Assembly: GCA_964499705.1 (NCBI GenBank)
Contig: CAZCME010000006.1
Coordinates: 124,001 to 188,000, forward strand
Reading direction: 5' to 3'
Source: an uncultured bacterium
GTDB taxonomy: Bacteria; UBA8481
DNA: 64,000 bases
Shown: piece by piece, positions 6,061 through 24,170 of the stretch
How positions within the stretch are numbered: the first letter of the stretch is position 1
Layout: the number at the start of each line of letters is the position of its first letter
Position numbers and translations under genes: made by a program
The notes under the pieces: model-generated
Databases searched by the model: none
What the model saw: only the letters and a program-made list of their open reading frames with translations
Told to the model about the DNA's origin: nothing

Positions 6061-7959
6061 GTGTCGCCGCCCGGTTCAAAACGAGCATCTGGTTTTCACT
6101 GGATGTCATTGCCGTCTTTCGTCGTTCTTGCAACCGTAATTTTCCTTGCGACGCAATTCGATCCCGCGCTCCCTGCAGGCGGCGCCGCCGGATCGTCCGC
6201 CCCCGCGCATTATTCCGCCGATTCCATCACACTCCTCTTCGATAACTTTGACGGCTCCCATCAGGGCGTTGCCGCTTCCGCAGGCATCTCCTACGAAACA
6301 GGTTATCTCTCGGGCAACGCCGTGCGATTCCCCGACACGATGTCCTTCATCCGATACAGCGAAGGATTCTGGCAACCGAACGGCGAGGATGATTTCCAGG
6401 AGTCGGGAACGATCGAGTTCTACTACCGGCCGGAGACCTTCATCTACTCGGGCGCCAGGCCCTACGGCATGCTCTTCACGATCGGCGAACGGAGCACGTT
6501 TCCGAATTTCGGCGAGCCGAACCTCTCTGTTTTCGAAGATGGACAACTCCGCTGGGAGATCGCCCGGTCTCCCACTGGCATCACATACAACACCGCCGCG
6601 GCAAACGACCCTCCGCTCTATCCCGGCCAGTGGTATCACGTGGCGGCGACGTGGAGCGGCAAGAATATTTTCCTCTACCGAAACGGAACTCTCGTGGGAA
6701 ACGGGACTTCGGATTCCTTTGTCCTCGCCGACACGTTTCTCCTCGGCGCCACCGGAGTACTGCCGTTGGCGCAAGGAATCGGTGTTCAGGCCCGATTCGA
6801 CCGGCTGAGGATATCCAACCGAGCCCGAAGCGCCGACGAGCTTCCATCCGCCATGGACGTCAGGATCGATTCTCCTGTGAATGGAGAGGATCTCACGCCG
6901 CCGTTTCCCGTCGCTTACCGCGCGTTCGAATCGGTGTATCGCTCGCGACTCGTGGACCTTGGCGTCGACACGAATTCGTCCGGTTTCGATGGAATCGTCA
7001 TGGCGCGCAACCTCCCCGAATCCGGCGTCGTCCTGACAGGCGCGGGAATTCCGGACGGCACGTTCTACGTCTATGCCATCGCTCACTCCGGCGAAGATTC
7101 CGCGTTTTTCTACACCGCGTCGCCGATCCACGTCACCGCTTCCACCCAGTACTCCATGATCACGGATCCACTGGACACGACGGCGACGGTCGCCAACGTT
7201 CCGACAACCGGCGACTCGTTCGTGCTCATTCTCCTGAATGGCGGAGGAATCACGTCCGGTTCGCTGACCGCCTCCGCCGACTCGATCGGCACAAACGCCA
7301 ACTACTCCATCGCGGCGCGCCTTCTCCAGGCGGCCGACTCCGTCCGAATCTTTATCTGGACCACCGAAACCGCGCCGTCGATACTCCTAGGCGTCCGGAG
7401 CGACACCGGCAATCTAAGCGCTACGCTTCCCGCCGGGATCCCCAATTCCGAACTCGGACGTGCGACATTCGGCGCGACGGTCGTCTCGCTCGAGTTCCTC
7501 CGTTCGAACGGCTCGATGATCGGCGATACGACTTCAACACACCTGCTTCGCGATACGTTTTCGTACTCGCTGGAGTATCAACTCTCGGCGGCCACCGCCT
7601 CTGCATATCAGTCACTCGGATTCGATTTATCCCCGGGATCGGGTTCCTTTGCGTTCTATTTTTCGGACACGTATGGATCCCCCTGGATTTGGGATTCCTC
7701 CGTCATGGTCTCCGTACTGGCGGGTTCCGGAGGCGGCATCCTCGTCCGGGTCGCCGGGATCACGCGTGATCTCCCCGGAGGCCTCGGCATGGCACCGAAT
7801 GGAGGCGTCGTTCTGAACCAGGTCGACGAGCCGGGCTTCTGTATCCTCTACCATATGGGATTGGCGGGCTGGGCGCTGGAATTCCTGCGCGCCCTGAGGG
7901 ATTTCATCATGAGCCTTGCGCTGGGAAGATGGGCGACGGAAATCTACTACACGCTATAG
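6061..7959 (+). CDS. Secreted LamG/concanavalin-like domain protein with a CFI-box-CTERM-like C-terminus
   Basis: Signal-like N-terminus; SGTIEFYYRP, GQWYHVAATWSG...LYRNG, FDRLRISNRARS (LamG_3); tail GFCIL...LEFLRALRDFIMSLALGRWATEIYYTL. Confidence 0.75.
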   Translation: MSPPGSKRASGFHWMSLPSFVVLATVIFLATQFDPALPAGGAAGSSAPAHYSADSITLLFDNFDGSHQGVAASAGISYETGYLSGNAVRFPDTMSFIRYSEGFWQPNGEDDFQESGTIEFYYRPETFIYSGARPYGMLFTIGERSTFPNFGEPNLSVFEDGQLRWEIARSPTGITYNTAAANDPPLYPGQWYHVAATWSGKNIFLYRNGTLVGNGTSDSFVLADTFLLGATGVLPLAQGIGVQARFDRLRISNRARSADELPSAMDVRIDSPVNGEDLTPPFPVAYRAFESVYRSRLVDLGVDTNSSGFDGIVMARNLPESGVVLTGAGIPDGTFYVYAIAHSGEDSAFFYTASPIHVTASTQYSMITDPLDTTATVANVPTTGDSFVLILLNGGGITSGSLTASADSIGTNANYSIAARLLQAADSVRIFIWTTETAPSILLGVRSDTGNLSATLPAGIPNSELGRATFGATVVSLEFLRSNGSMIGDTTSTHLLRDTFSYSLEYQLSAATASAYQSLGFDLSPGSGSFAFYFSDTYGSPWIWDSSVMVSVLAGSGGGILVRVAGITRDLPGGLGMAPNGGVVLNQVDEPGFCILYHMGLAGWALEFLRALRDFIMSLALGRWATEIYYTL

Positions 7960-8069
7960 TTCGATTGTCCGGTGTGTGTAAAAATTCTTACCTTTCATTT
8001 TCATAGCTAACTGTCCAAAGCCGAGTATAATTTCCACATCATGCGACAACCTCGCCGGGCAGGGGGCCG

Positions 8070-11000
8070 ATGAAAAATCGCCGTCTTGGCGCGACCTTTT
8101 TCGGCCTTATCTTCTTAACAATAGCCTTATTCCTGCATTCCGCTCCCGCGCATGCTTCCGGCGACGACCGAACGATATCCTCGATCAGGATCACCCCGGA
8201 CAATGTCTTCGACAACGATACGACAGCGCCCTACAGCGACTCCGCGATCTACATCCGGATCAACATCGCCGGCGCCAATGTTGGCGGCGACGAGGATCCG
8301 GACGGCGAAGGGGGTCAGAGGGTCGAGATCGAGAATTCCGCGACCGGTGAAATCGTCGCCCGGATCATTTCCACGGAGTCCCAGAACGTGGCCGCCGCGC
8401 TCATGTTCTGGGAAGGTCACGGCGACACCCAGCGCGCGAACGCCGATACGCTGCCCTATGGGACGTATGTCATCCGAGCCTACCAATCGATGCGCGACTT
8501 CAATTCCGGCGACATCGTTGACGTGGAATCGGTCGACGGAATCTACATCGACCGCCCCGGCGATATGCATGTCTCGTCCACCGGAATCCTCACGTGGGTC
8601 AATACGGGAACCAATCCCGGAATCGTGCAGGTGGCGTTGAACGATCCCACCCAGGACAATCCCACCTTCATCAAGAGGCTCATCCTGGACACGGCCACGA
8701 CGGGATTGGCCAACAATGACTACGCCTACGGGCTGACGGTCAATTCCCAGGGGTACATCTTTCTCTCCGACAATTACTGCACCAACACGTCGCGGACAAG
8801 AATCATCAAGTACGACACGGCCATTCCCATGACGGAGCTGGTCGATCCGAAAGGCAGGAGCTGGTACGACACGAGCGGCGGTTACATCGACGAGATTTAC
8901 GGGCTGGGGATCTGCGATCAGCCGGGTCCGTGGTTCGACACGATCTACGCCGCAACCGCGTCGGGCATCGCGGGAGGTGGAGACGGCGGCGCCGTCGAAT
9001 GCATCCTGATGCTCCGCGACACCGGCACGAAGGGCTACACCTTCCGCACGTCAAACAACACGGCCGATGACTATTACGATGTCGCGCCGATGGAGACGCA
9101 ACTCCCCAGCCAGAAATCCGATTCGTGCGTCTTCGCGATCGATTATCTGAACAACGAAATCGATTCGTTCCGGTTCACCCCCGCGGCGGACGTCATCTAC
9201 CAGGAACTCGACGCCAATGTTCCAAAAAACATGAAGGGCGGTATCTGGACCTACGGAAACTCCTTCTATTGGACGGCCTACGAGGATCTCGATTCCTTTG
9301 CCAAGCACGGCAAGAACCGGCAATCGCTCTACACGATCACCGACCCCAAGCTTGACGGCGCCGTCAGCATCTGCGTCTGGTATGACAGCACGACGAATGA
9401 CACCTTCGTCATCGTCGGCGCGCAGATCGCCAATGAAATATCCATCTGGAAAGAGGCCGCTGACGGCCTTTCCGCGACGTATGTCCGGAGCATCAGGGAA
9501 GACGATTACCGGCTCTCGGGTCCGACCGGCATCGCCACCGACTCGGCAGGCGCCGTGTATGTCGTCTCCCGTACTTCTCTCAGCGTCAAAAAGTTCGACA
9601 GGGACGGAATATTCGTTCCATTGAGCGGCGCCCCCAACGGCCGCTTCCTCCAAGGACGCGACGCGACGACCGACCTCAGCGACACGGAAGGGTTCCAAAA
9701 TCCCGGAGCCATCTGCATCGACACGGACGGATATATCTACGTCTTCGACCAGGTTTCCGGATTCAGCGGCGCGGCCGTCATCAAGCGCTTTGCGCCGGAC
9801 GGAACGCCGGACGATACGACCTGGTTCAATCTCCGCTACAGCGTTCCCGGCCTGGCTTGGAACGGCGAAATCACCATGGCCATCTTCGCCAACTCGAACA
9901 TCTTCGGCCTGTCGCGGGAGAACGACGGTCGTCTCTTCCGTGTCGGGCTCGGCAAGGACTCGACTTTCAAGAATGCCGTCACGACGCCCGCGATTGACCG
10001 CGATCTCCTTTCGCTCAGCTATGGCCCTTACTTCGACCGGACTCTCCCCAATCGCTTCTTCGCGAGCGCGCTCTATGTGTTCACGGACCAATTCCGGATT
10101 CGCGTGTACACAACCGATATTAATCAAGAGCTGGTCGGCCTTGCGGGAACGAGCGGCGAAATCACGGTGACGCAGGACTACCCTTGGGGCGGTTCACCCA
10201 ACATTCCCCAGCCGTTTCTCGTCGACAATTTCGGCCAGATCTACATGATGCCGGACGACGATAACCTCACCAGTTTCCCGCTCCGGATCTACAACGGAGC
10301 CGATTCTTTCAGTCAATTCGGCGCGAATGCGACATTCGGCTACACCTTCAATGAAGGCAGCGGAATTCTCCAACTGAGCGATCCGCGCCAGGCGGTCTGG
10401 GCCGACAACGCGGGGGTCTACCAATTGAATGGCGCGACGGGTCGATACGAGCAGAGCTTCTGGGTCAACGACAGCACGAACAACAGGCTGAGAAAACTCC
10501 TGCTGGCTTGGAACGACGTCGCGACGACGACGGTGGACATCGCCAAGTCGGAGGACTCCCCGCGCATCTCCTCCGCGACGCTCGAAGAACGAGATTCTTC
10601 GGGCGCGCTGGCGGCCTGCGCGCTGATCGACGGCATCTACTACGTCAACGCGGGCGTCTGCACGATGTCGGTCAACTTCAATCACGTCTGCGCGTACAAG
10701 TACAGCCCGGACACGCCGACCATTCAGATCAAGCCGACGGGCGGAAGCTTCACGAGAATCAACCAGGATTCCATCTTCTGGAATGGCGTCAATTTCCGCT
10801 GCACGTTCGTCGTGACAAGCGCCATGCAGGACGGCGATGTCCAGATCCGAACGGAGGATTTCTACGACACGACGTTCTCCGTCCGATACCAGGATCCGAA
10901 TCCCGACCAGACGGATTACGATCTCTCCGACTTCTTCAAGTCCTTCTACATCGACCAGACCGGGCCTTCCATGACCATGACGACACCGCCTTCGGCAGGC

Positions 11001-14000
11001 GATACGACCGCGCTCTCCACGTACAATGTGGGCGGCACGATCACGAATGAGGTGACCGGTCTCGACGCCAACATCATCTTCAGCAACTACACGGCGCTGA
11101 CGGGCGGCACCGAATTCGATTCCATTTCCACCATCGCGGACGCCTTGGACGGAACGTTTGCCGGCACGCTCGATCTCCAGTCGCCGGCGCCATCCAACAA
11201 CTACATCCAGGTCACCGCCGTCGACGTGCTCGGTAACCGCTCGGTTCTTTCGCCCCGCCGGCTCGTCATTCGCCAGAAGAACGTCGGCAACGCCGGCATC
11301 GCGCCCAACTCCGAGACGATCGTGGCGTCGCCGCGCCGTTATCTCATCACGTATTCTGCCGCTCAGGCGCTCTCCAACGACACGCTCCGGTTCACCATGC
11401 CGTCCGCATGGAGCCAGCCGCAGAAGAACAACGATCTGACCGAAGGTTATGTGACGATCCTCGAAGGGCCGAGCGCGTACACGGACTCCAGCTTCAGCAG
11501 CCAGAGCGTGACGGTGACCGGGGTGACACGGAGCATCGGGGAGAACATCCGGCTGGTGTACGGCGACTCGACGAGCGCGGGGGGCGGAGGCAACCAGACG
11601 GCATTGGCGAAATCGACGACCGACGCGCCGCTCGACGACAATTCCAACACGTTCCTCGTGGAGCTTCAGCAGGTTGGCGAGACGACATTCACGACCGTTT
11701 CGCCCGCATCCGGCCTGACGCTGACGGTGCCGCTGAGGGACTCCTCGGCGGCGATCGCCATCGTGGAAACCGGTCCGCGCGGCAATGCGGTCCTGACCGA
11801 TTCGGTCGTCATCTCCAAAGGCGCGGAGACCAAGGTGATGCAGCTCCGATTTTACAACTCCAACGTCGGCGCTCACGCCAACCGAGTCTCCTCACTGGTC
11901 ATGACGGTTGAATCGGACACAGGCGCGTCCGTCACATGGGTCAACACCGCTTCCCAGCTACGTGTGATCAATACAAACGAAGGCACGACATTCGCCACCG
12001 CGACGACGCTCCCCGCCAGTAACTCACTGACGATCAATCCAAGCGGATTCACGATTGACCAAAGCGCGACGCGGGATATGGAGTTCTGGATCACCATGTC
12101 GCCTTCAGCGACTCCCGATACCGTACGATTCTATTTGTCGTCGCTGTCGGCCATCACGATAGTCGACAGCGCATCGAGCAAGTCGCTGTCCACCGTGGAG
12201 CAGGAGACGAAATTCGTGGGGCTCAGGACGGGAGAATACGATATCATCGGCCTGGCGGCGGCCGATACGCTTTATGTCGGCGCTGACACGGACGCCCTGA
12301 CGCCGACGGACGTCTCCACGCGACAGCAGAACCGCCGGATCATGGACTTCTCGTTCCGTAACGATACGCCGTATGTCGATACGCCCGTCAATTCGATCCG
12401 CGTCGACAAGCTGATCCTGACCGTGCGGGACTCCTACGGAACCGGCATCATCCCCGCCCGAATTCTCAAGGGCATCCGTTTGCAGGACGCGACGACGAGC
12501 ACGTCGTACGGAGGCGTCGACACCCCGTCGATTCCCTACGTCGGCGATACCGTGGCGCTCCAGCTTTCGGGGCTCGTCATCAGTTCGGGCGGAACCGTCA
12601 ACACCAAGCTCCTCGTCGACATCGTCAACGACACGGTTTCACCGGACAGCTTCCGGATCTTCCTCGACAGCCCGGCCACGTCCGCGCAGGACAGCCGGAT
12701 CATCGCGAAAGATCAGATCTCGCAGTTCAGCGTCAAGATCCTCGACGAGCTCGGCGATCCCGACGACTTCAAGTTCCAGACGGCGGGCATAAAGATCATC
12801 CGCCGGGGACGAGTGAACATCGCCTACTGGACGCTCCTGCAGACGGATTCCAGTGTCGTTCCCGGCACGATCGTCGCCGGGTCGCAATTCTTCCTCGCGC
12901 TCCACTGCACCGCGACGCCGACACAGGGGCCGGTTCGCGTCATTCCGTCCGACACGGACATCAAGGTCACGAACCAGGGCAGGAACGTCACGAGCCAATT
13001 CACGTTCGACGCCTTGACGCCGGAATTCACGTTGACCGCGGGCAGCGCGGACACGATCTACTGGGGAGTCGTCCAGAACTTGGGCGACACCACCGGCACG
13101 CTCGTTTTCCAGTTCTCCGACACGGGCGGCGCCGGCTCGACAAGCGCCGACACACGGCCGCGCTTCTTCGACGCGCACGATTATGACGGCGCGGACGCGA
13201 TCCGCGCGGAGTCGTTGAACGAGACACGGACCGTGAGCGTCACGTTCACGTCCCAGTCGCTCGTCACGACGACGCACACGCTCGATACGACCTACGCCAA
13301 CGCCGCCGAGACGGCCGTCCCGATCCTCCACTTCAGCATCAAGAACAACCAGGGTACGGCGCGGCGGCTCGATTCCGTAGTCGTGGAAGCGATCTCTCCC
13401 GATTCCGCGATCAGGCTCGTCCGGCTTTATCACGACGGCAAGACGACCGACACAGGAACGCTCAAGCGATCGGATTCGCCGTACGCCATCGCGGGATTTG
13501 ATACGCTCGTTTCCACGGACACGCTCATGGTAAGCGACAGTTCCGTGATTCTCCGATGCTCCGTGACGATCGGCGCGGGGCGGACGGAATCCTTCTTCAT
13601 CGCCTTCGACTTCGACAATGTGGTGAACGACAACGACACATTCGACGCGCGGATTCCCGCAAGCGGCCTCCGTACGGTTCAGGAAGCCTTCTATCCGACA
13701 AGCCTCGTGAACTCCGCGGGCTCGGGCCGGCTGGAGGTTGTCGCGAACAGGATCACGATCACGCCGGATTCGCAGACCGTGGCCGTCGGTTCCAGCCCGA
13801 ACATCACATTGAAAGCCGTGGACGAGTACGGGAACCTCGACAACGCGATCAACTATGAAACGGGAACTCAAGGGCACAACGTCCAGGTCCAGGTCTCATG
13901 CACGGAAGTGCTCCCGCCCGGCGATTCGAGTTTCTCGATCACGGGCACGAGCGGCATGACAAGCGTGACGCCGACGCCGGCGGCCACGGGAATCTCATCG

Positions 14001-17000
14001 ATCAGCGGCCGGCTGACGAGCGGCCAGGGCCAGGTGACGATCCGCGACACCTCCGCGGAGACGGTCGCGATCACGCTTTCTTCGACACTCATCGACTCGA
14101 CCGCTGCGATCCAGTTCGCCAACCTCATCACCGTATCCGCCGTGAATCTCGCCTCCGCTGATTCCGCCAGTCCCGACTCACGCGCGTTCCAGGTCGCGAA
14201 ATTCCGCGTCGTCAACCAATCCGGCCAGAACGACGTCGTCAAGACAGTTGGCATCCGGTCTCTGAACGCGAACGACGCTCACATCAACGCCGTCATCCTC
14301 TACCGGGACGACAACGGGAATGAAGCGATCGATTCCGGAACTGATCTCACGGTGGCGACCGGGAACTTCACGTCCGGATTCGTCACGTTCGACAATCTCG
14401 ACGCGTTGCCGCTCGATATCTTCGACCAGGACTCCGAGCTCTTCATGGTCGGTTACAACGTCTCGACAACTGTGTCCGACGCCGCCCTTCTCGACGCGCA
14501 GGTCGACACAGTCGTCATCACTTCGTCGAGCGCCAACATCGCATCGACCTTGAACTCTACGCCGAATCGCCGGACGGACGTGAAGGTGATAAAGCTCTCT
14601 CTCTCTCCGACCTCGGGAACAAACGGAACAGGCGTCAGCGTCGTTGCGTCCGTGGCCGCTGTCGACACGTACGGCAACACGGATATCCATTACAACGGCG
14701 GAACGGGAATCATCTGGGATCTGACCGGAAGCGCCTTCTGGCAATCGGCTACTCTAACCGCAGGGTACACGATTGGGCCCGGCGGCGGACTTCCGGACAA
14801 CACGCAGATAAAGGGAACTCTCCAGAGCGGACAGGCGACTCTCACGTTCACAGATAACTCGGCGGAGACGCCGATTCTGACGGTCCAGACCTCCCCCGGC
14901 CTTACCGCGACGCACGATTCGGGAACCTTCGTCTTCCAGCAAGGCTACCTCGGAACCGCAATCGGCGCCGATAACATCACTGTCAATCCCGGCGACACGA
15001 ACATCGTCCTTCTGGCGTTCAATCTCTCCGCCAACGGCGTCTCTGACTCGCCCGCATCCTTCAGCTTCGTATGGGGTTCTTCGGCCGACACGCGCCAGAT
15101 CCGGAACCTCCGGCTCTTCACCGACCTCGACAACGCCGGAGGTTCGACGAGCGACGACACGTTCTCCGCGTCCGCCGACACGCGATATGCCGAGGCCGTC
15201 TCCATTGTCGGAACGACATGCACCTTCGTCGCGGTGTATACGAATGACACGAAGTATCTTGCCAGCGGCGGTAACCGTTCGTACTACCTCGTGGCCGATA
15301 TCGCCGACACCGCAATCGGCGGAGACACGCTCGACATGGAGATTCCGCAGGCTTACATCGCCACTCACACGCAGATCCCGAACGTGCCTCTTGCCGTCCG
15401 GAATTCCGCCGGCAACTGCACCGTCGCCCGTGTGCCGGACACGTTCCGCATCGGGACGATCGCGACGTCGGATCGGCAGGCTTCGGAGGATCAGACGGAG
15501 ATCGTCTCGATGACGCTGCGATTTTCCAGCCCGAGCGCGGCCGACCGGAAGTTCTACGTGGAGACCGTCGCGTTGCAGGTGGAGGGTTTGACCGGCGGGA
15601 AAGTTCCGTCATCCGTCATTCGGCGGGTCAAGTTGCGGAACCAGGGCTCGGGAACGATCTATGCCGACACGACATCGGTGCCGGCGGCCGGCGACTCGAT
15701 CGTCGTGAAGATCCCGTTCGATACGGCCAATCCCCTGGCGATCGGCGGCGCGACTCCGGAAACGGTCGTGATCGACGTCGTCCTGCAGATTGCATCCACC
15801 GTCACGAACAACGACACCTTCCGACTCCGTATCAACGGTTTCGACACGAACAGCTTCCGCGTCTTCGACCATAAGACGAACGTGCTCTCGCCGAAAGATC
15901 AGAAAGGCAACGTCTCCGGCCTCTACGGGGCGGCGGCGCCGATTCTCGGCTCGGTCGTGACCGTCCAAAAGCAGGCGCTCGTGACACAGCAGGCGATCCG
16001 GATCACGGATCCCTCCGGGAACGACATCACGTATCCCACGAGCATCACGCAGGGCGAGCAGTTCAAGGTGGAGCTCGGACTGCGGGCATCGGCGGGCCGC
16101 GCGGACGCGCAGGTGAAGTCGGCGGACACGGACCTGACGTTCTACCGTGCCAATGGCATCACGGACATTACGAACGAATTCACCATCGCGTCGCGCACGC
16201 ATTCGACGCTCACGACGATCACGGCGGGTACCGTCGACACGATCACATACACGGTCGCGCAGGGCGCGCCTTTCTCCGGCGCGAACGAGACGCTCGTCAT
16301 CAATAATTATCTCCTCTCCGATACCGGCCCCTATCTCCAGGATTACAACTCGAACGCGGACGGCGTGAAGCTTCGGATCTACGCCGTGGAGGACGCCGTC
16401 TCGACGGACGCCGTCCGGATCGATTCCACCTACGCCTCCGTCTCCGTCGTGACGCTCGCCGCCAACAACATCGCGCCCGATTCGCAGGGCACGCGCATCT
16501 TCGGATTCAAGATCACGGACGGCGGACCGCGGGACACGATGACGGGGATCCGGGTCCATCTCGCGACACCGTCCTTGGCTCCGATGATCAAATCCGTCTG
16601 GATCGCGATCGACACGAACAAGAACGGGTCCTATGACTCCGTCGCCACCGGCGGCGACACGTATTTCGGAGCCGTCCAGAACTTCCTGACGTCCGACACG
16701 GTCTTCTTCATCGACACGTTCCGGCTGTATGGTTCCGGCGATACCCGCGAGTTCTGGGTCTGCATCAACCTGGAGACCGCGGGCATCACGGATTCCGTTC
16801 AGATCCGTGTGGAGATCCCGATCGACGGCATCGGATTCCGTGGTGCATCCGCGGACCAGGACTCCATTCCGAAGACTCTTCTCACGTCGAGCGTCCTGAT
16901 GAGAACGATCATAGTGGCGACGAGGATCGTGGGTAATCCGGACTCGCAGACCATCGCGGTAGGTGCGGGCGCGACGATCACGATCACGATGGAGGACACG

Positions 17001-20000
17001 TACGGCAACCGCAATATCCGGACGACGAACTACGCGCAAGCCACGACAAGCTGCCTCATACGCGATACGTGGGGACCCATCGCGGGGGGAACGTCGTATG
17101 ACAGTAAATCCGCGCGGTGGACTTCCACAACGCTCACAAGCCAGTCGCCGGCGTCGCTGCCGACCCCGGCGGACAATTACGACACGCTCGTCACCGGCAA
17201 GCCGACCGCGGGTATCGCCACGGTGACCATGACCGATACGGCGACGGAGACCGTCGTGATCGTCTTTTCCGCAACCGGCATATCGGACATGCGCTGCACC
17301 GTGGCTTTCAACGCCGATCCGAATGTCACGGCGGTAACGCTTTCGAATCTGGGGAAAGTCTCGCCGGACTCCACCGATGCCGTGATCCTTCAGATGGACG
17401 TCGCGTATCCATTCACATTGACGACCGTCGACTCGATCTACCTCGTCTCCGAGAATACCTTCGACACTTCGATCAAGCGCCTGCGGCTCTGGGTCGACTC
17501 CAACCAGAACGGGTCCTTCTCCTCGGCGACCGACTCGAACATCGACACGGCGGCGTGGTCCGCCGGCGGCTGCTCCTTCCTCGTCAACAGGAACTGGGTC
17601 AAGCCCGCCACGATCTCCACGCAGAGATTGTTCGTCACCGCGGAGATGGAAACATCTCCGCAAAACGACAACGACTCGATCGGCTGTCGGATCGAGCGCG
17701 GAGGCATCCGACTGAATCCGCCGGCCTTCCCGAACGGCTTCTTCCCGCCGACAGGCGAGCTGGACTCGATCAATACCGATACGCAGAACCAGATCATCGA
17801 CGTGGATGCGACCCAGACGAACGGCCTCCTACAGATCCTCCACCCCGGCCAGCAGAACAAGGATATACCATTCACGTTGTCCATCAGAGCCTGCGACAAG
17901 AACGGCAACGTGGATCGCGTCTTCACGACGCTCGGTTCATCAAGCGCCAAGGATGTCACCTTCAGCGCCTCTCCGGCGGGCTTCACAATCAATTCCACAT
18001 CGATGACGGAAACCGTGCCGCTTCCGGCGTCCACGATGCGCGCGCGATTCCTGCGAGGCTTCGACACGATCACGATCACCCCGTCGCTGGCCGATACGAT
18101 CACGCTGACGGCGGATGTTCATACGCAGTATCCCGCCGACACGACCATCACGATCGTGGTGGTGGCGGGTGGATGGTCGGTCACGGCCATGTCGCTCTCG
18201 GACGGCCAGTTCGTGGCGGCCGATTCGGGACAGGTCGTTTCGCGCGTCGTGTTCAAGAACCTCGACGTTTCCACGGACACGCTCACAAGGATTGACGTCG
18301 CCGACCTCGGCAATCTCATCTGCAACACGGACGTCACGAACGTCGGGCTTTGGGCCGATAAGAACGTGAACAATACCTTCGACACGGGCACGGACACATT
18401 CCTAGGCAACACGACGTTCACCGCGACGGAGACGGCCGTCTTCGACATCGTGCGGCCGATCGGGTCGCTGAAAGCCGAGACCTATTTCATCGTTGTCTCG
18501 ATCGCCGCCGCGCCGGCCGGCTCGGCAGGCGACACGATCAACATCCGCTATGTCACGCAGACCTGCTCCACCGCTCGATTCGGCCGTATCCCGACCGCGG
18601 ATGTCACTCACACCGACAGCGTTTCGTACTCTGTGCCCTCGACCGGCAATCTCTTCGCCTACGCGCGTTCGGTCCCGGATGCCAATGCAACTTCCGGCGC
18701 CGACAATGTCCTGGTGGGCAGTTTCTTCGTCCGGAATACGCGCTCCAATGCCGACTCGATCCAGACAATCGTCGTTAAAAACGACACCGGCGCCCATCCC
18801 GACACGGGGATCCGGGTGAAGATCTTCATCGACGGAGATTCGGACGGCGTGTATGACGGTGTTGGAGTCGATACTCCGTTCGGATCGGCGGGGCTTTTCG
18901 TGAACCGCGTCTTCAGCCGGACGGATTCCGCGCGGATCGGCTTGAGCGGCGATACGGTCGGATTCCTCGTCCTCTTCGATCTTTCCGACACGTTGACCGT
19001 CGACTCGCAATACCTGCGCGTTTACATCGATACCGGCGGTTTCACGGCCTTCGTGACGAACGGATCCTCCGACACGGGCGAATCCGTTCTCCTCCGGTCG
19101 AGCGGCACCGTCAAGACGAACCTCGTCGGAACGGTCTTTCTCGGCGAGTCCGTTCTCGTCTCGGCCGGCAGCGCCGCCGCGACCGACACAGTCTTCGTCT
19201 CCGTCGCGGTCCGAGACACATTCGGTTCACCCCTGACGGGACGAGCCGTGACGTTGTATGCATACGGCTCGACGATCCTGACGACGAATCCCGTCGTCAC
19301 GGACACTCAAGGTTACGCCCAGTACGCGATCACGTCGGCGACCGCCGCGGTCATTTCCTGCACGGTGGCGATCGATACCGGTTCTCCGCCGTCGGCGAAG
19401 CCGGCCGCCACCGGTTACGCGAACTTCATCTCGCTGCTGGCCGTCGGAGACACTCAGTTCACCTCGAACACGCAGCACGCGACGATCACAGGAGTGAATC
19501 GAAAGCACCTGACGGCGCCGTCGTTCGATTCGGCGAATCCGAACAACATGGCGTACGGGTATTACGAGAACAGCAACTATCGGATCTATGGAGGAACATT
19601 CCCCGCGGCACCGGCGGCGATCGTTTCAAGCGCCGGTGTTCCCGGAATCGGGCTCGATGCCCCGGCACCGACCTGGACATCGAATCCGAAAGTCCGATAC
19701 ATCAAGGGCGTCGCTGGCGCCGTTGTGCTCTTCGGAGGCTTCTCCACCGACACCCACTTTGGATCCGAACTGTATTATCGGCAGCTTGACGGCGGCGGCG
19801 TGACGACCCGGATTTCTCCCAACGATACGCGGTCCGGTACATCCAACCTGAATTTCGACACCGACGCCGAATTCGATCAGTTCGATGTCTCCCCGTCCGG
19901 CGAGACGATCGTCTGCTCCTATACGGGACAACTCGCGTGGTGGCGCGCGGTTGGAAGCGCCTTCAATCCCGGAGCCGACTCCAGGACGTTCCAGTTCGTC

Positions 20001-21446
20001 ACGACGCTCCGGGATTCCAACATGTCGCTCTTCGGCGGATATGGCTGGAACGGAGCCTACATCCAGTATCCGTCCTGGTCGCCGGACGGAAACAGGATCG
20101 CGTTCACAGTCGTCTACCGCAACAACGGCTTCGCCGGGCCGAGCGACACCGCGGAAATCTTCGTCCTCTACAACCTGGGCGGCATCACGACAACGCCCAT
20201 TCCTTACCAGCGGTTCGGCAATGTGACGACGCTCCCTGCGACGACCAATCCCTACCTTGTCAAGGTGACAAGCGCCGATTCGATCCTCTTCGCTTGGCAG
20301 CCTCAGTGGAGCCGGGATGGGTCGGCGTTGTTCTTCAGCGGCAACAACAACTTGAATTTCGATTACGAGGTCTTCAACCAGACGGAGAATCCTCACAACG
20401 CCATCGGCGCCACGGGCGTGGACTTCAATACTTACATGGTCTACTACGACAAGGCGGCGGAGACGGTTCCGTACCGGCCGATCCTTGTGTCCCACGAGCC
20501 GAGCGTGGACGAGATCGCCGGCGAGATGTCCGCCACCGGCGAATCGCTCGCAATCATGCGCGCGCCCTCGCCGAACTACGAGGAAGTCCGGACTGTCCGG
20601 GTCGCAACGCAGGCGAACGTGACGACGTCCGGCGGGATCCTCTTCGATTCCGGCCGCGTCTCCGTCGTCATCCGGGAAAATGAGAGCTTCGGCAACGGCT
20701 TCACGATCTCCGGCCACACACCGGACACCCCGACCGCTCCCGGCAACGACTCGATCATCATTTCCGGTGTCGCCAAGCGGTTCTTCAATCCGGACACGCC
20801 GACAGCACCGGTCTACTTCCCTGAATCCGTGGTCGTTTACCTCTATTACAAGAAGCAGCACTTCACCGATACCGATCTCATCGGCTACGACGGCGACGGG
20901 GACGGTATTCCGGACCGCACGGAAAATTCCATCGGAGCGTACTACTGGAACACCGCGAACTGGGTTGCCTATCCGACCGTGCGGTTCCCGGCGGAGAACA
21001 AGATCCAGTTCTGGACGGATCACTTCTCGACGTATGCCGCCGGGCTTCCGATGGAAGCCCGCGCGATGGCGTTCGGCGGGAGCGTCAACGACGTGATCGC
21101 GTATCCGAATCCATGGCGCGCGGACGGCGCGACCGCGGGCCTGGCGTCGACGGACGAACGATACGGCATCAAGCTCACACGGATGCCGGGTCCGGATGTG
21201 CGCGTGCGGATCTACACCATTAACGGCGAGCTCGTGAACGACGCGACGGTGAACGCGGCGAACGGCACCTCGAACAATTCGTCGCTCCGGGTGACGGCCG
21301 CGATCGTCAACGACGGCACCGTCGGCGGAACCGTCTCGTGGAATCTGCGGAATCAGCGAAACCGGGAAGTGGCCTCCGGCGTCTTCTTGATCGTGCTGGA
21401 GGGCCCGGGAGGGAAAGCCGTCCGAAAAGTGGCGGTGATGCGATGA
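8070..21446 (+). CDS. Giant (4458 aa) secreted surface protein: signal peptide, FlgD-Ig-like, NHL propeller, many Ig-like repeats, PD40/TolB-like propeller, ZU5-like HFS domain, T9SS-CTD/FlgD-Ig-like C-terminus
   Basis: Signal peptide ending AHA. NHL repeats (LSGPTGIATDSAGAVYVV; FQNPGAICIDTDGYIYVFD). Recurrent DxNxNG and DxYGN motifs. YPSWSPDGNRIAF and WQPQWSRDGSALFFS. TDHFSTYA. Ends VIAYPNPW...VRIYTINGELV...WNLRNQRNREVASGVFLIVLEGPGGKAVRKVAVMR. Confidence 0.9.
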   Translation: MKNRRLGATFFGLIFLTIALFLHSAPAHASGDDRTISSIRITPDNVFDNDTTAPYSDSAIYIRINIAGANVGGDEDPDGEGGQRVEIENSATGEIVARIISTESQNVAAALMFWEGHGDTQRANADTLPYGTYVIRAYQSMRDFNSGDIVDVESVDGIYIDRPGDMHVSSTGILTWVNTGTNPGIVQVALNDPTQDNPTFIKRLILDTATTGLANNDYAYGLTVNSQGYIFLSDNYCTNTSRTRIIKYDTAIPMTELVDPKGRSWYDTSGGYIDEIYGLGICDQPGPWFDTIYAATASGIAGGGDGGAVECILMLRDTGTKGYTFRTSNNTADDYYDVAPMETQLPSQKSDSCVFAIDYLNNEIDSFRFTPAADVIYQELDANVPKNMKGGIWTYGNSFYWTAYEDLDSFAKHGKNRQSLYTITDPKLDGAVSICVWYDSTTNDTFVIVGAQIANEISIWKEAADGLSATYVRSIREDDYRLSGPTGIATDSAGAVYVVSRTSLSVKKFDRDGIFVPLSGAPNGRFLQGRDATTDLSDTEGFQNPGAICIDTDGYIYVFDQVSGFSGAAVIKRFAPDGTPDDTTWFNLRYSVPGLAWNGEITMAIFANSNIFGLSRENDGRLFRVGLGKDSTFKNAVTTPAIDRDLLSLSYGPYFDRTLPNRFFASALYVFTDQFRIRVYTTDINQELVGLAGTSGEITVTQDYPWGGSPNIPQPFLVDNFGQIYMMPDDDNLTSFPLRIYNGADSFSQFGANATFGYTFNEGSGILQLSDPRQAVWADNAGVYQLNGATGRYEQSFWVNDSTNNRLRKLLLAWNDVATTTVDIAKSEDSPRISSATLEERDSSGALAACALIDGIYYVNAGVCTMSVNFNHVCAYKYSPDTPTIQIKPTGGSFTRINQDSIFWNGVNFRCTFVVTSAMQDGDVQIRTEDFYDTTFSVRYQDPNPDQTDYDLSDFFKSFYIDQTGPSMTMTTPPSAGDTTALSTYNVGGTITNEVTGLDANIIFSNYTALTGGTEFDSISTIADALDGTFAGTLDLQSPAPSNNYIQVTAVDVLGNRSVLSPRRLVIRQKNVGNAGIAPNSETIVASPRRYLITYSAAQALSNDTLRFTMPSAWSQPQKNNDLTEGYVTILEGPSAYTDSSFSSQSVTVTGVTRSIGENIRLVYGDSTSAGGGGNQTALAKSTTDAPLDDNSNTFLVELQQVGETTFTTVSPASGLTLTVPLRDSSAAIAIVETGPRGNAVLTDSVVISKGAETKVMQLRFYNSNVGAHANRVSSLVMTVESDTGASVTWVNTASQLRVINTNEGTTFATATTLPASNSLTINPSGFTIDQSATRDMEFWITMSPSATPDTVRFYLSSLSAITIVDSASSKSLSTVEQETKFVGLRTGEYDIIGLAAADTLYVGADTDALTPTDVSTRQQNRRIMDFSFRNDTPYVDTPVNSIRVDKLILTVRDSYGTGIIPARILKGIRLQDATTSTSYGGVDTPSIPYVGDTVALQLSGLVISSGGTVNTKLLVDIVNDTVSPDSFRIFLDSPATSAQDSRIIAKDQISQFSVKILDELGDPDDFKFQTAGIKIIRRGRVNIAYWTLLQTDSSVVPGTIVAGSQFFLALHCTATPTQGPVRVIPSDTDIKVTNQGRNVTSQFTFDALTPEFTLTAGSADTIYWGVVQNLGDTTGTLVFQFSDTGGAGSTSADTRPRFFDAHDYDGADAIRAESLNETRTVSVTFTSQSLVTTTHTLDTTYANAAETAVPILHFSIKNNQGTARRLDSVVVEAISPDSAIRLVRLYHDGKTTDTGTLKRSDSPYAIAGFDTLVSTDTLMVSDSSVILRCSVTIGAGRTESFFIAFDFDNVVNDNDTFDARIPASGLRTVQEAFYPTSLVNSAGSGRLEVVANRITITPDSQTVAVGSSPNITLKAVDEYGNLDNAINYETGTQGHNVQVQVSCTEVLPPGDSSFSITGTSGMTSVTPTPAATGISSISGRLTSGQGQVTIRDTSAETVAITLSSTLIDSTAAIQFANLITVSAVNLASADSASPDSRAFQVAKFRVVNQSGQNDVVKTVGIRSLNANDAHINAVILYRDDNGNEAIDSGTDLTVATGNFTSGFVTFDNLDALPLDIFDQDSELFMVGYNVSTTVSDAALLDAQVDTVVITSSSANIASTLNSTPNRRTDVKVIKLSLSPTSGTNGTGVSVVASVAAVDTYGNTDIHYNGGTGIIWDLTGSAFWQSATLTAGYTIGPGGGLPDNTQIKGTLQSGQATLTFTDNSAETPILTVQTSPGLTATHDSGTFVFQQGYLGTAIGADNITVNPGDTNIVLLAFNLSANGVSDSPASFSFVWGSSADTRQIRNLRLFTDLDNAGGSTSDDTFSASADTRYAEAVSIVGTTCTFVAVYTNDTKYLASGGNRSYYLVADIADTAIGGDTLDMEIPQAYIATHTQIPNVPLAVRNSAGNCTVARVPDTFRIGTIATSDRQASEDQTEIVSMTLRFSSPSAADRKFYVETVALQVEGLTGGKVPSSVIRRVKLRNQGSGTIYADTTSVPAAGDSIVVKIPFDTANPLAIGGATPETVVIDVVLQIASTVTNNDTFRLRINGFDTNSFRVFDHKTNVLSPKDQKGNVSGLYGAAAPILGSVVTVQKQALVTQQAIRITDPSGNDITYPTSITQGEQFKVELGLRASAGRADAQVKSADTDLTFYRANGITDITNEFTIASRTHSTLTTITAGTVDTITYTVAQGAPFSGANETLVINNYLLSDTGPYLQDYNSNADGVKLRIYAVEDAVSTDAVRIDSTYASVSVVTLAANNIAPDSQGTRIFGFKITDGGPRDTMTGIRVHLATPSLAPMIKSVWIAIDTNKNGSYDSVATGGDTYFGAVQNFLTSDTVFFIDTFRLYGSGDTREFWVCINLETAGITDSVQIRVEIPIDGIGFRGASADQDSIPKTLLTSSVLMRTIIVATRIVGNPDSQTIAVGAGATITITMEDTYGNRNIRTTNYAQATTSCLIRDTWGPIAGGTSYDSKSARWTSTTLTSQSPASLPTPADNYDTLVTGKPTAGIATVTMTDTATETVVIVFSATGISDMRCTVAFNADPNVTAVTLSNLGKVSPDSTDAVILQMDVAYPFTLTTVDSIYLVSENTFDTSIKRLRLWVDSNQNGSFSSATDSNIDTAAWSAGGCSFLVNRNWVKPATISTQRLFVTAEMETSPQNDNDSIGCRIERGGIRLNPPAFPNGFFPPTGELDSINTDTQNQIIDVDATQTNGLLQILHPGQQNKDIPFTLSIRACDKNGNVDRVFTTLGSSSAKDVTFSASPAGFTINSTSMTETVPLPASTMRARFLRGFDTITITPSLADTITLTADVHTQYPADTTITIVVVAGGWSVTAMSLSDGQFVAADSGQVVSRVVFKNLDVSTDTLTRIDVADLGNLICNTDVTNVGLWADKNVNNTFDTGTDTFLGNTTFTATETAVFDIVRPIGSLKAETYFIVVSIAAAPAGSAGDTINIRYVTQTCSTARFGRIPTADVTHTDSVSYSVPSTGNLFAYARSVPDANATSGADNVLVGSFFVRNTRSNADSIQTIVVKNDTGAHPDTGIRVKIFIDGDSDGVYDGVGVDTPFGSAGLFVNRVFSRTDSARIGLSGDTVGFLVLFDLSDTLTVDSQYLRVYIDTGGFTAFVTNGSSDTGESVLLRSSGTVKTNLVGTVFLGESVLVSAGSAAATDTVFVSVAVRDTFGSPLTGRAVTLYAYGSTILTTNPVVTDTQGYAQYAITSATAAVISCTVAIDTGSPPSAKPAATGYANFISLLAVGDTQFTSNTQHATITGVNRKHLTAPSFDSANPNNMAYGYYENSNYRIYGGTFPAAPAAIVSSAGVPGIGLDAPAPTWTSNPKVRYIKGVAGAVVLFGGFSTDTHFGSELYYRQLDGGGVTTRISPNDTRSGTSNLNFDTDAEFDQFDVSPSGETIVCSYTGQLAWWRAVGSAFNPGADSRTFQFVTTLRDSNMSLFGGYGWNGAYIQYPSWSPDGNRIAFTVVYRNNGFAGPSDTAEIFVLYNLGGITTTPIPYQRFGNVTTLPATTNPYLVKVTSADSILFAWQPQWSRDGSALFFSGNNNLNFDYEVFNQTENPHNAIGATGVDFNTYMVYYDKAAETVPYRPILVSHEPSVDEIAGEMSATGESLAIMRAPSPNYEEVRTVRVATQANVTTSGGILFDSGRVSVVIRENESFGNGFTISGHTPDTPTAPGNDSIIISGVAKRFFNPDTPTAPVYFPESVVVYLYYKKQHFTDTDLIGYDGDGDGIPDRTENSIGAYYWNTANWVAYPTVRFPAENKIQFWTDHFSTYAAGLPMEARAMAFGGSVNDVIAYPNPWRADGATAGLASTDERYGIKLTRMPGPDVRVRIYTINGELVNDATVNAANGTSNNSSLRVTAAIVNDGTVGGTVSWNLRNQRNREVASGVFLIVLEGPGGKAVRKVAVMR

Positions 21447-21471
21447 GGAAAAACAAGCGCGAATGCGAATG

Positions 21472-21502
21472 TTGGGATTTGGGATTTGGGATTTGGGATT
21501 TG
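21472..21502 (+). repeat. Heptamer tandem repeat (TTGGGAT)x4
   Basis: Read directly; intergenic between the giant gene and the PorV-like gene. Confidence 0.95.
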
Positions 21503-21516
21503 ATTTATTCACCTTT

Positions 21517-21532
21517 GTGTAAGTTTTTACAC
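21517..21532. promoter_or_regulatory. Palindromic candidate operator GTGTAA-N4-TTACAC
   Basis: Perfect 6-bp inverted repeat upstream of the PorV-like gene. Confidence 0.4.
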
Positions 21533-21585
21533 GCGACTCGTCCGCGCTATTCCCAAGCCCCTTATGGTAAGATAGGGATGGTGTA

Positions 21586-22707
21586 ATGACCCGAACAGGC
21601 CGAAAATCAAGGATGATGCGCCGAATGCCTCCATCCTATCCTCGCGCTTCCGCAATCGCTCTGGTTCAACCTCAACATGCATGGTTCCTCTTCCTCATCG
21701 CGATGATACTCCTCTTCGCGTTCCTGCTTCCATCCCGGGCGGCCGACATCTCGTCACAGGCCGGAACGAAAACCGGAACGTTTCTGAAATTCGAACCGGG
21801 CGGACGGCAATCCGCGATGGGAGGAACCTACGCCGCGTACGGCTCCGACGTCTTCGCCCTCTGGGGCCAGCCCGCCGCGCTCGGTTCCGCTCCGCGCGCC
21901 TGGCAGGTCGGATTCCAGCACGCGGAACTTTTCCAGGGAGTCACGCAGGAATATCTCGGCATCGCCGGAGGTTTCGGAGATCGTTCGCGAGTGGGCCTCG
22001 TCGTCAACACCGTCGGCATCGACGATCTGCTTCGCACGACGGAAAACGCGGGTGGACAGTTGACCGGAACGGGCGGCACGTTCGGCGCGCGCGATCTCGC
22101 CGTGGCGTTGAACTACGGCATCCAGATGAGCGAGTACATCACATTGGGCGCCGCGGCGAAATACGTCGGCAGCGAGATCGACGATGTCCGCGCATCGGGA
22201 TTCGCGGCGGACTTCGGAGTCCAGATGCGGCTCCGTAATATCGAGGACCTGACGATCGGCGCTTCCGTCACGAATGTCGGCACGGGCCTCAAGTTCATCC
22301 GGACGCGCGACGACTTCCCGACCACATTCCGCCTCGGCGCCGCGTATCGCATCCGCTCCATGAAACTTCTCCTCGCCGCCGACGCCGTGAAGTCGCTCGA
22401 CCGGGACTTTGACGGCGGAGTCGGCGCGGAGTGGCGTCCCGTCGAGATCCTGAAGCTCCGGGTCGGTTATCGCACCCAGGGCGACGATGTCGGCGAAGGA
22501 TTGACCGCGGGCCTTGGCGTCAATCTTGCCGGCCTGGAGATCGACTACGCCTACGTTCCCTACGGTGTCCTCGGCGATGCGCACCGCGTCAGTGCGGCCT
22601 ATCTCTTCGGAGGCGGGCGAGAGAATATCGAGCCGGCCGGGAGCGCCGCTCCGGAGACACCCGAACCTGTCCGCGCGTCGCGAGTCAGGGTGTTGAAGCG
22701 CCCTTAA
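21586..22707 (+). CDS. PorV/PorQ family (UPF0164) outer-membrane beta-barrel protein
   Basis: Signal peptide, then GTKTGTFLKFEPGGRQSAMGG...FALWGQPAAL, alternating beta-strands and EIDYAYVPYGVLGDAHRVSAAYLFG. The true start may be a later Met (21613-21625). Confidence 0.85.
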   Translation: MTRTGRKSRMMRRMPPSYPRASAIALVQPQHAWFLFLIAMILLFAFLLPSRAADISSQAGTKTGTFLKFEPGGRQSAMGGTYAAYGSDVFALWGQPAALGSAPRAWQVGFQHAELFQGVTQEYLGIAGGFGDRSRVGLVVNTVGIDDLLRTTENAGGQLTGTGGTFGARDLAVALNYGIQMSEYITLGAAAKYVGSEIDDVRASGFAADFGVQMRLRNIEDLTIGASVTNVGTGLKFIRTRDDFPTTFRLGAAYRIRSMKLLLAADAVKSLDRDFDGGVGAEWRPVEILKLRVGYRTQGDDVGEGLTAGLGVNLAGLEIDYAYVPYGVLGDAHRVSAAYLFGGGRENIEPAGSAAPETPEPVRASRVRVLKRP

Positions 22708-24169: not shown

Positions 24170-24170
24170 A

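Follow-up and report, generated by a model that had tools for sequence, protein, structure and literature searches.

A giant secreted protein with a type-A C-terminal tail and an adjacent PorV/PorQ-family barrel: a candidate private surface-display pair in a lineage labelled Hydrogenedentota

The surface display of a giant secreted protein may depend on an outer-membrane barrel encoded directly behind it in a lineage labelled Hydrogenedentota, not Bacteroidota. In a stretch of 64,000 nt (the window), we delineate a cassette of three genes and favour, at a probability of roughly 0.6, a reading in which the giant protein would pass out through a SprA-like pore and would be held by its private barrel via an uncleaved C-terminal domain (CTD, or tail). 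The features on which this reading draws are as follows.

6061..7959, plus strand: gene 1 of the cassette, a LamG/ConA-like protein of 632 aa, secreted or membrane-anchored (Pfam Laminin_G_3, E 2.3e-14)
8070..21446, plus strand: the giant cargo gene, a single open frame of 4458 aa, probably encoding a surface protein
8070..8156, plus strand: Sec-type signal peptide, cargo residues 1-29 (MKNRR, a hydrophobic stretch, AHA-S), read from the translation
19173..19385, plus strand: bacterial Ig-like domain Big_1, cargo residues 3702-3772 (Pfam PF02369, E 4.5e-8, 33.5 bits, narrowly missing the cut-off of 34.9)
21084..21443, plus strand: type-A, PorZ/PorU-like CTD covering cargo residues 4339-4458; it carries 20 inserted residues in common with the paralogue on contig C7
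21474..21503, no strand assigned: tandem repeat of TTGGGAT, four copies, within the 139 nt separating the cargo gene from the barrel gene, read from the sequence
21586..22707, plus strand: outer-membrane barrel of the PorV/PorQ family with 14 strands, whose longest ORF gives 373 aa and whose family match covers 21772-22602

The conserved unit is these three genes, LamG-like, cargo and barrel. The sole full-length relative of the 632-aa LamG-like protein in the genome (49% identity) lies directly upstream of a cargo paralogue on C7; this paralogue (4238 aa) is 51% identical to the cargo over nearly its full length, and the barrel is kept there too, among other neighbours. The preliminary description of the window had reported the exported 4458-aa protein with its type-A CTD and a PorV/PorQ-type barrel next on the same strand, and both identifications hold.

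The association of cargo and barrel extends well beyond the window. Across the 4.67-Mb genome, 21 of 25 PorV-family matches lie 69-326 nt downstream of a tail-bearing gene on the same strand, and since only 34 tail-bearing genes are present, this adjacency is not due to chance. Twelve of the 21 paired tails were recovered independently by a curated TIGR04183 search, and the proteins of these approximately 21 pairs are mostly 1,000 to 11,500 residues long. Synteny in relatives had been put forward earlier as a check, and in four relatives 48 of 65 PorV-family matches are paired; among loci from many other phyla, the same holds for 37 of the 76 that were testable. All of the genomes are bins from metagenomes, with a completeness of 86-96%. 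Pairing is not obligatory, because 13 of the 34 tail-bearing proteins have no downstream barrel and four barrels have no cargo. Scanning 13 ORFs downstream of eight of these 13 barrel-less tail genes yielded no PorV- or PorP-family barrel, and in one relative (G003) the closest barrel orthologue (67% identical) is not preceded by a cargo gene. Tails and barrels have also diverged in step: their identity matrices correlate at r = 0.80, a value reached by none of 5000 label permutations, and nearest neighbours agree for 15 of 21 pairs, with tail and barrel up to 85-88% identical while the passengers are 34-40% identical. Such correlated divergence can also come from duplication of whole cassettes, without co-adaptation.

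The cargo carries at its C-terminal end the motifs VIAYPNPW, IYTINGELV, VASGVFLIVL and KVAVMR, quoted in the preliminary description. Its last 120 aa pass TIGR04183 at the borderline (23.1 bits against a cut-off of 23) and match the tail part of the PorZ model NF052228 at E 4.6e-10, whereas Pfam Por_Secre_tail responds weakly to the cargo (E 0.04) and the type-B tail model TIGR04131 gives nothing at E <= 1. When the tails of the genome were aligned, TIGR04183 (E <= 0.01) and the PorZ tail were matched by 11 of 11, and FlgD models were touched by four; the top-scoring models were the tails of PorZ (11/11) and PorU (7/11), which are described as the two T9SS proteins with retained tails (PMC10947112; PMC10202324, as far as these accounts go). 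The predicted CTD structure is all-beta (pLDDT 77), and a fold search placed PorZ 5m11 at rank 1 (E 3.8e-3, TMq 0.55) and PorU 6za2 at rank 3 (E 8.5e-3, TMq 0.50), with FlgD also among the top three (E > 0.001); these fold matches are weak, none reaching E <= 0.001. By sequence, the tails of this genome are assigned to the type-A CTD family.

The barrel passes the PorV/PorQ family model NF033709 (153.2 bits, cut-off 90) and falls below both equivalog cut-offs, scoring best as PorQ (NF033711, 95.9 bits, cut-off 220) and lower as PorV (NF033710, 56.2 bits, cut-off 250). As neither equivalog cut-off is reached, it represents a separate branch of the PorV/PorQ family. A profile of the barrel retrieved the solved Flavobacterium johnsoniae PorV from the PDB (6h3i_F, E 1.1e-22); its model has 14 strands (pLDDT 84), and the top Foldseek matches are the PorV chains 8gl6_F (TMq 0.83) and 6h3i_F (TMq 0.80). 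A hairpin was sought at the junction between cargo and barrel, where only the TTGGGAT repeat was found.

Modelling of the complex, which had been recommended at the outset, supports the pairing. The tail and barrel of the window score 0.81, against 0.01 for the best of three controls; among solved complexes 116 of 157 attain this mark, as do 2 of 215 mismatched pairs, counts that are only roughly valid here because our own alignments were used. Contact agreement among the runs is at least 99%, partner pLDDT is at least 77, and the modelled contacts involve the conserved tail stretches YPNP, SGV and the C-terminal KVAVMR. Since a solved counterpart exists, PorV with the RemA tail (8gl6), the pass may reflect mere likeness to it.

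A genome-wide HMM search, also proposed earlier, was applied to the export machinery as well. A single SprA-like homologue of 2150 aa lies elsewhere in the genome (TIGR04189, E 4.1e-46, 156.9 bits, below the cut-off of 200), compared with about 2700-2790 bits for SprA of the control genomes. The gene is present in all five lineage genomes, encoding about 2,100-2,250 aa with 53-62% mutual identity, and in each it stands beside lptFG; a related-locus search with this protein returned no relatives. A 248-aa ORF following the SprA-like gene lacks conservation among relatives and probably does not represent a gene. GldL and GldN were detected in none of the five lineage genomes versus three of three controls, and GldM likewise in none of the five, with the controls positive. 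The GldM model is positive in only seven of 31 genomes of a Bacteroidota-type phylum, and the GldL model is silent also in three genomes (G006-G008) despite SprA scores above 1000 bits there, so that absence of the motor is unproven. In G000, GldK gave one partial match of 34 bits against a cut-off of 350. The Pfam GldM_1st model PF12081 had no match in the five genomes searched, a result that is uninformative as there was no positive control. PorP/SprF (TIGR03519) was sought in three genomes and found in neither G001 nor G002, while in G000 its one 21-bit match fell on a PorV-family gene; the controls hold 10 and 6 copies. The models behind the apparent lack of a sortase and a motor may be too narrow. 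With these findings, the earlier suggestion of a T9SS-related but divergent export route is supported.

Our data suggest a model whereby the giant protein would be exported by Sec, as its signal peptide predicts, and would then cross the outer membrane via the single divergent SprA-like translocon. The barrel encoded downstream would then bind the predicted Ig-like CTD with its lateral face and extracellular loops, a step that the complex model supports, and the tail would probably never be cut, because no PorU-type sortase is detectable; the barrel would thereby serve as a permanent non-covalent membrane anchor. The preliminary description had spoken of a dedicated cargo-shuttle pair. Dedication is supported by the adjacency, the in-step divergence and the complex model; for the word shuttle we would substitute anchor, which is more apt if the sortase is absent.

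That the barrel is after all a transient shuttle seems unlikely to us, though it is the strongest of the alternatives. On this view, a sortase-like enzyme that escaped detection would cut the tail and join the cargo by a covalent bond to LPS or a surface glycan, the mode known from Porphyromonas, and the acceptor would be made by the glycosyltransferase, NDP-sugar and radical-SAM genes nearby. According to the account in PMC10202324, such processing is the norm for the type-A CTD family, and the position of the SprA-like gene beside lptFG and the possible narrowness of the T9SS models fit this reading, as do the sugar genes flanking the pair, which are listed here with their neighbours.

351-1145 and 26092-26754: GT2 genes
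2930-4810: multi-pass membrane protein with at least six hydrophobic segments and no family match
22766-24169 and 24102-25979: B12/radical-SAM genes
26813-27505: nucleotidyl transferase
27507-28499: NDP-sugar dehydratase/epimerase

These genes had led to the description of the window as a glycosylation locus. The GT2, radical-SAM and NDP-sugar flanks are indeed present, and so is the multi-pass membrane gene that had been called GT-C-like, a family assignment that found no match. Even so, they do not belong to the unit: in the paralogous cassette on C7, the LamG-like gene, cargo and barrel recur among different neighbours, which are TerC and a GDSL lipase on one flank and mreBC with an M23 peptidase on the other. 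Glycosylation and radical-SAM genes are therefore rejected as components of the system. Also against a shuttle, the PorU model NF033707 matched by its tail part alone (model positions from about 955) in all five lineage genomes, as opposed to full-length matches in two of three controls (1374-1397 bits) and a partial match in the third. A search of G000 for Peptidase_C25 (PF01364) found none, although this search had no positive control and is uninformative by itself. Moreover, hand-over to a sortase needs one shuttle, and 21 private barrels exist.

Less probable still is that the barrel itself exports its neighbour, in the manner of two-partner or autotransporter-like systems and independently of the SprA-like protein. 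The strict order of cargo then barrel, often with overlapping stop and start codons, and the undetected motor and ring genes would suit such a device. However, the fold is a 14-strand FadL/PorV-type barrel, a type in which cargo is bound by the loops and of which no member is known to conduct proteins as a pore; the SprA-like giant barrel is kept in five of five genomes, and 13 tail-bearing proteins manage without a barrel of their own. Finally, we give very little credence to the adjacency having some other reason, for example that the barrel is a BamG-like subunit for assembly, or a channel of FadL type for hydrophobic molecules, and is merely co-transcribed with surface proteins: TodX/FadL channels and Bacteroidota BAM-complex chains (9hiv_F, 9n2d_B, 9hjm_F) are among the barrel fold matches and NF033709 is positive also in Bacteroides thetaiotaomicron, which is not known to have a T9SS, but PorV itself is the best match in both fold and sequence, the upstream partner always has the same kind of tail whatever its passenger, and the complex model passes its controls.

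The anchoring that we favour resembles known arrangements, and the earlier word undescribed was too strong, given that cognate PorV-like barrels holding uncleaved tails have already been proposed, namely PorQ for PorZ and PorP/SprF for type-B cargo (PMC10202324; PMC12618676, to the extent that these accounts cover them). The closest likeness is to the attachment complex of Porphyromonas gingivalis, in which, as these accounts describe it, PorQ holds PorZ and PorV holds PorU via uncleaved tails (PMC10947112; PMC10202324). Common to both systems would be a PorV/PorQ-family barrel that retains a surface protein via its uncleaved tail. The partners here, in contrast, are varied, huge cargo proteins rather than components of the secretion machine. 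A genome carries about 21 such pairs, against two in that complex, with each barrel gene next to its cargo gene, and the PorU sortase, the PorZ body and PorKLMN are undetected. A second likeness is to type-B CTD cargo, exemplified by SprB-SprF of F. johnsoniae, where every cargo gene is followed at once by that of a dedicated PorP/SprF-like barrel, in many pairs, and secretion and targeting require this barrel (PMC12618676; PMC9143113, within what these sources relate). The barrel gene directly behind the cargo gene and the many pairs per genome are shared, whereas here a PorV/PorQ barrel accompanies a type-A tail. With the canonical type-A T9SS (SprA/Sov, PorV, PorU, PorLM and PorKN), the system shares the Sec signal and a predicted Ig-like tail at the C-terminus, along with a divergent homologue of SprA and a barrel of the PorV family that is modelled to bind the tail. 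The canonical system is presented as a Bacteroidota machine in which all type-A tails use a single PorV shuttle and a sortase (PMC12618676, so far as that account extends). In the present lineage, by contrast, most tails come with a barrel of their own, neither motor nor ring nor sortase is detected, and the SprA-like protein scores below its cut-off.

A lineage labelled as lying outside Bacteroidota would hold some 21 private barrels for as many giant proteins, with motor and sortase not found. If the anchoring model is true, PorQ-PorZ anchoring would be a general modular mount for very large proteins on an outer membrane and not a detail of one machine, and the succession of a tail-bearing and a PorV-family gene would offer a simple rule by which to find the surface proteome in many uncultured phyla. 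The model further prompts one to ask how a SprA-like pore is energised when PorLM is missing. Tentatively, and with less than even odds, we entertain a minimal relative of the T9SS in the Hydrogenedentota-labelled bacteria and, by related loci, in Elusimicrobiota, Calditrichota, Eisenbacteria and others, which would combine a SprA-like pore with many private PorV/PorQ-type barrels, dispense with PorLM, PorKN and the sortase, mount proteins as long as 11,500 residues on the surface by non-covalent anchoring of tail to barrel, and could be ancestral to the Bacteroidota machine.

The cargo has a single hydrophobic segment at its N-terminus (residues 4-22), and the N-terminus of the LamG-like protein is likewise hydrophobic (residues 11-29). 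A PDB sequence search with the cargo found no match, self-BLAST revealed no internal repeats at E 1e-3, and a regular expression for DxDxDG-type loops retrieved only a handful. In a Pfam scan, the cargo showed Big_1 and PD40 alone, each slightly below its own cut-off, and the protein Atlas offered, as a weak lead only, an NHL-propeller-like N-terminal part (score 0.83, below the 0.9 line). The passenger probably serves as an adhesin or as a scaffold for binding, made up in part of propeller and Ig-like regions.

The giant cargo gene of the window and the gene of its outer-membrane barrel stand on one strand with a LamG-like gene (window, G000:C6:124001-188000; the G000 assembly, that of the source genome, has 4.67 Mb in 45 contigs and is 96% complete):

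6061-7959, + strand, LamG/ConA-like protein of 632 aa (Pfam domain, E 2.3e-14)
8070-21446, + strand, giant cargo of 4458 aa (open reading frame)
21586-22707, + strand, PorV/PorQ-family barrel of 373 aa (NF033709)

The cargo starts with a Sec-type signal, as read off the translation, and its sole hydrophobic segment is residues 4-22. Its only Pfam matches were Big_1 and PD40, both near the cut-off; no match was found among PDB sequences, and no internal repeats were detectable by BLAST. The last 120 residues, which form the tail (C-terminal domain, CTD), reached 23.1 bits against the T9SS type-A tail model TIGR04183 (cut-off 23) and E 4.6e-10 against the tail region of PorZ; modelled alone (pLDDT 77), the tail had PorZ, FlgD and PorU as its closest folds, at only E 4e-3 to 9e-3. 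The barrel scored 153.2 bits against the PorV/PorQ family NF033709 (cut-off 90), a profile search gave E 1.1e-22 with the solved PorV of F. johnsoniae, and its AlphaFold model (14 strands, pLDDT 84) was nearest to the PorV chains 8gl6_F and 6h3i_F. It fell below the equivalog cut-offs of both PorV and PorQ, with the higher score for PorQ. Among named sequences, the one closest to these barrels (69% identity) is labelled Candidatus Hydrogenedentota, a phylum of the FCB group in the NCBI taxonomy. The gap between cargo and barrel holds four copies of the heptamer TTGGGAT (21474-21503).

The dedicated cargo-barrel pair put forward in the preliminary description is real, and the adjacency recurs in G000, in its four relatives and in other phyla. 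NF033709 matched 25 places in G000, 22 of them above the cut-off, and 21 of the 25 have, as the nearest large ORF upstream on the same strand, one that stops 69-326 nt before the match and carries a homologous tail; motifs common to the paired tails are YPNP, TGI, W-D-RN, ASGVY and GK-A-I-R. An HMM from the 21 paired tails found 34 G000 proteins with a C-terminal tail and one internal match, a count that is partly circular. Searched independently, the curated TIGR04183 matched 25 places (12 of the 21 paired tails and 13 unpaired ones), and 11 of 11 G000 tails matched it when scanned individually. Giant tail-bearing proteins thus take up much of the genome's coding capacity: 25 ORFs on contigs C1-C33 exceed 3000 aa, and the largest, C22:44568-79160, has 11,530 aa. 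Thirteen tail-bearing proteins have no downstream barrel, and none was present among 13 ORFs scanned behind 8 of these 13 genes; four barrels have no cargo upstream. One of these barrels (L002, C1:285932-286768) shares 84% identity with the paired barrel L005 at C1:5270 and may act as partner for tail-bearing proteins that lack a private one.

The pair belongs to a lineage-wide, multi-phylum pattern. Within the lineage set of five genomes, G000 included, the four relatives hold 14-21 PorV-family matches and 16-22 tails each (tail profile A1, from 11 tails). By coordinates, a same-strand tail match lies at most 1300 nt upstream of 48 of their 65 barrel matches (12/16, 10/14, 15/21 and 11/14 per relative), and at most 270 nt upstream in 45 of the 48; the count leaves out one row that is the second piece of one frame. 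The window's own pair is found on a short contig of G004, where the C-terminal part of the cargo is 39-42% and the barrel 62% identical, and an orthologue of the window barrel (67% identity) stands in G003 without an upstream cargo gene. A cross-phylum scan, with one genome per species and five closely related barrels as queries, returned 80 loci labelled Elusimicrobiota, Latescibacterota, Krumholzibacteriota, Eisenbacteria, Calditrichota, KSB1, Gemmatimonadetes, Ignavibacteriales, Rhodothermales and others. The DNA upstream was long enough in 76 of these loci, and in 37 of the 76 an ORF whose end lies 72-418 nt upstream bears a tail matched by the G000 tail HMM (E <= 0.01). Positive loci form the majority in Elusimicrobia, Calditrichia and Eisenbacteria, and almost all those of Latescibacterota were negative. 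PorV-family copies number 8-26 in eleven cross-phylum genomes versus 2-5 in three Bacteroidota-type controls, a comparison that is no survey because the eleven were picked for matching.

Tail and barrel also vary together. Pairwise identities among 21 barrels and 21 tails were correlated (r = 0.80; 0 of 5000 permutations as high), and the nearest neighbour was the same for tail and barrel in 15 of 21. The passengers, that is, the remainder of the cargo proteins, are mostly related too in sister cassettes, so whole cassettes were duplicated; tail and barrel are nevertheless far more conserved than passengers (for example, 85-88% versus 34-40% identity). This comparison shows tail and barrel as a unit of inheritance, constrained more strongly than the passenger, short of proving co-adaptation. 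Modelling of the CTD-barrel complex, proposed in the preliminary description, gave a score of 0.81 for the window barrel with its own tail versus 0.01 for the best of three controls, although this pass may reflect likeness rather than the pair's own binding, because a tail-bound PorV is already solved (8gl6). Among solved complexes, 116 of 157 attained such a score, and among mismatched pairs 2 of 215; these benchmarks hold only roughly because our own alignments served as input. The runs share at least 99% of contacts, with a partner pLDDT of at least 77, and the predicted contacts take in conserved tail motifs and the barrel loop at residues 83-106.

T9SS components in the five lineage genomes and in three controls (G038, G028 and G023, taken from a search of a Bacteroidota-type phylum)
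SprA-like: lineage 5/5, 156.9 bits in G000 (cut-off 200); controls about 2700-2790 bits
GldL: lineage 0/5; controls 3/3
GldM: lineage 0/5; controls ring
GldN: lineage 0/5; controls 3/3
PorU: lineage 5/5, tail part only; controls 2 full-length, 1 partial
GldK (G000 the only genome searched): a single partial match of 34 bits
PorP/SprF (G000, G001, G002 and two controls searched): a 21-bit match to a PorV-family gene of G000, with G001 and G002 negative; controls 10 and 6 copies

The proposal of a T9SS-related but divergent route stood in part: the SprA-like gene in all five genomes speaks for the relation, and the missing GldL, GldM and GldN matches, with PorU matched in its tail part only, speak for divergence, but the HMMs may overlook divergent forms. 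The GldM model matched only 7 of 31 genomes of the Bacteroidota-type phylum, and the GldL model was silent in genomes G006-G008 despite SprA scores above 1000 bits there; all genomes are bins, 86-96% complete. The SprA-like genes of the lineage, a single one per genome, are 53-62% identical over full length, and in 5 of 5 genomes they adjoin divergently transcribed lptF-lptG (L019, G000:C5:196001-215000; L118-L121), a conserved association of the translocon with genes of LPS export.

The best-supported reading, to which we assign a probability of roughly 0.6, is that the private barrel would be receptor and anchor of the tail, acting downstream of the SprA-like pore. The system is of a known kind: the window pair resembles PorQ-PorZ in family and SprF-SprB in gene logic, but is set apart by its scale and taxon, and apparently has neither motor nor sortase. 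In passages of one paper, T9SS is called exclusive to Bacteroidota, all type-A tails use PorV, and type-B cargo often has its cognate PorP/SprF gene directly downstream (PMC12618676). Passages of another state that PorZ and PorU retain their tails, held by PorQ and PorV, respectively, and propose that PorQ collects PorZ from Sov (PMC10947112); a review, in the passage concerned, offers the hypothesis that tails are shielded from cleavage by cognate PorV-like barrels (PMC10202324). T9SSs are described as possible in other FCB phyla in a passage listing six, Hydrogenedentota not among them (PMC11285876). Literature searches for type IX secretion with Hydrogenedentes, T9SS with Hydrogenedentota and type IX secretion with Latescibacter found nothing in the collection covered; the examined passages on T9SS in papers mentioning Elusimicrobi do not tie it to that phylum, and the cargo-barrel arrangement is undescribed in the examined passages on PorV-like, PorQ-like, PorV homolog or PorV paralog proteins.

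Contig C7 encodes the single paralogue of the window cargo, a 4238-aa protein (51% identity across nearly full length) whose tail and barrel are 79% and 63% identical to those of the window. A 638-aa LamG-like gene directly upstream of the C7 cargo is 49% identical to that at 6061-7959, for which no further full-length relatives were found in G000. The C7 cassette is flanked by GDSL lipase and TerC genes on one side and by mreBC and an M23 peptidase gene on the other; because the LamG-like gene is kept and the other neighbours differ, the unit consists of LamG-like gene, cargo and barrel. The surrounding glycosylation locus accordingly drops out of the proposed system, the GT2, NDP-sugar and B12/radical-SAM genes of the window not being shown as members.

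Two consecutive radical-SAM genes (22766-25979, with a 68-nt overlap) follow the barrel, the first with a Pfam B12-binding domain, the second with a DUF4070 domain and weak NCBIfam matches to B12/radical-SAM families; their best matches are RiPP and lipid methylase-type families, also weak. The flank also holds, at 31001-32389, a gene for an ATPase that has the domains ATPase_2 and DUF234 and is of a type described as mainly archaeal. Within a multi-pass membrane protein gene (2930-4810), an in-frame duplication at 3580-3711 comprises a 38-nt unit and a 23-nt unit, each present twice; the core of the 23-nt unit is palindromic. The peptide encoded in repeat by the duplicated stretch is HPCRSAA...PPSMEVG, and an ORF on contig C2 has a similar stretch of 34 residues; a small repeat element may have inserted here into coding sequence.
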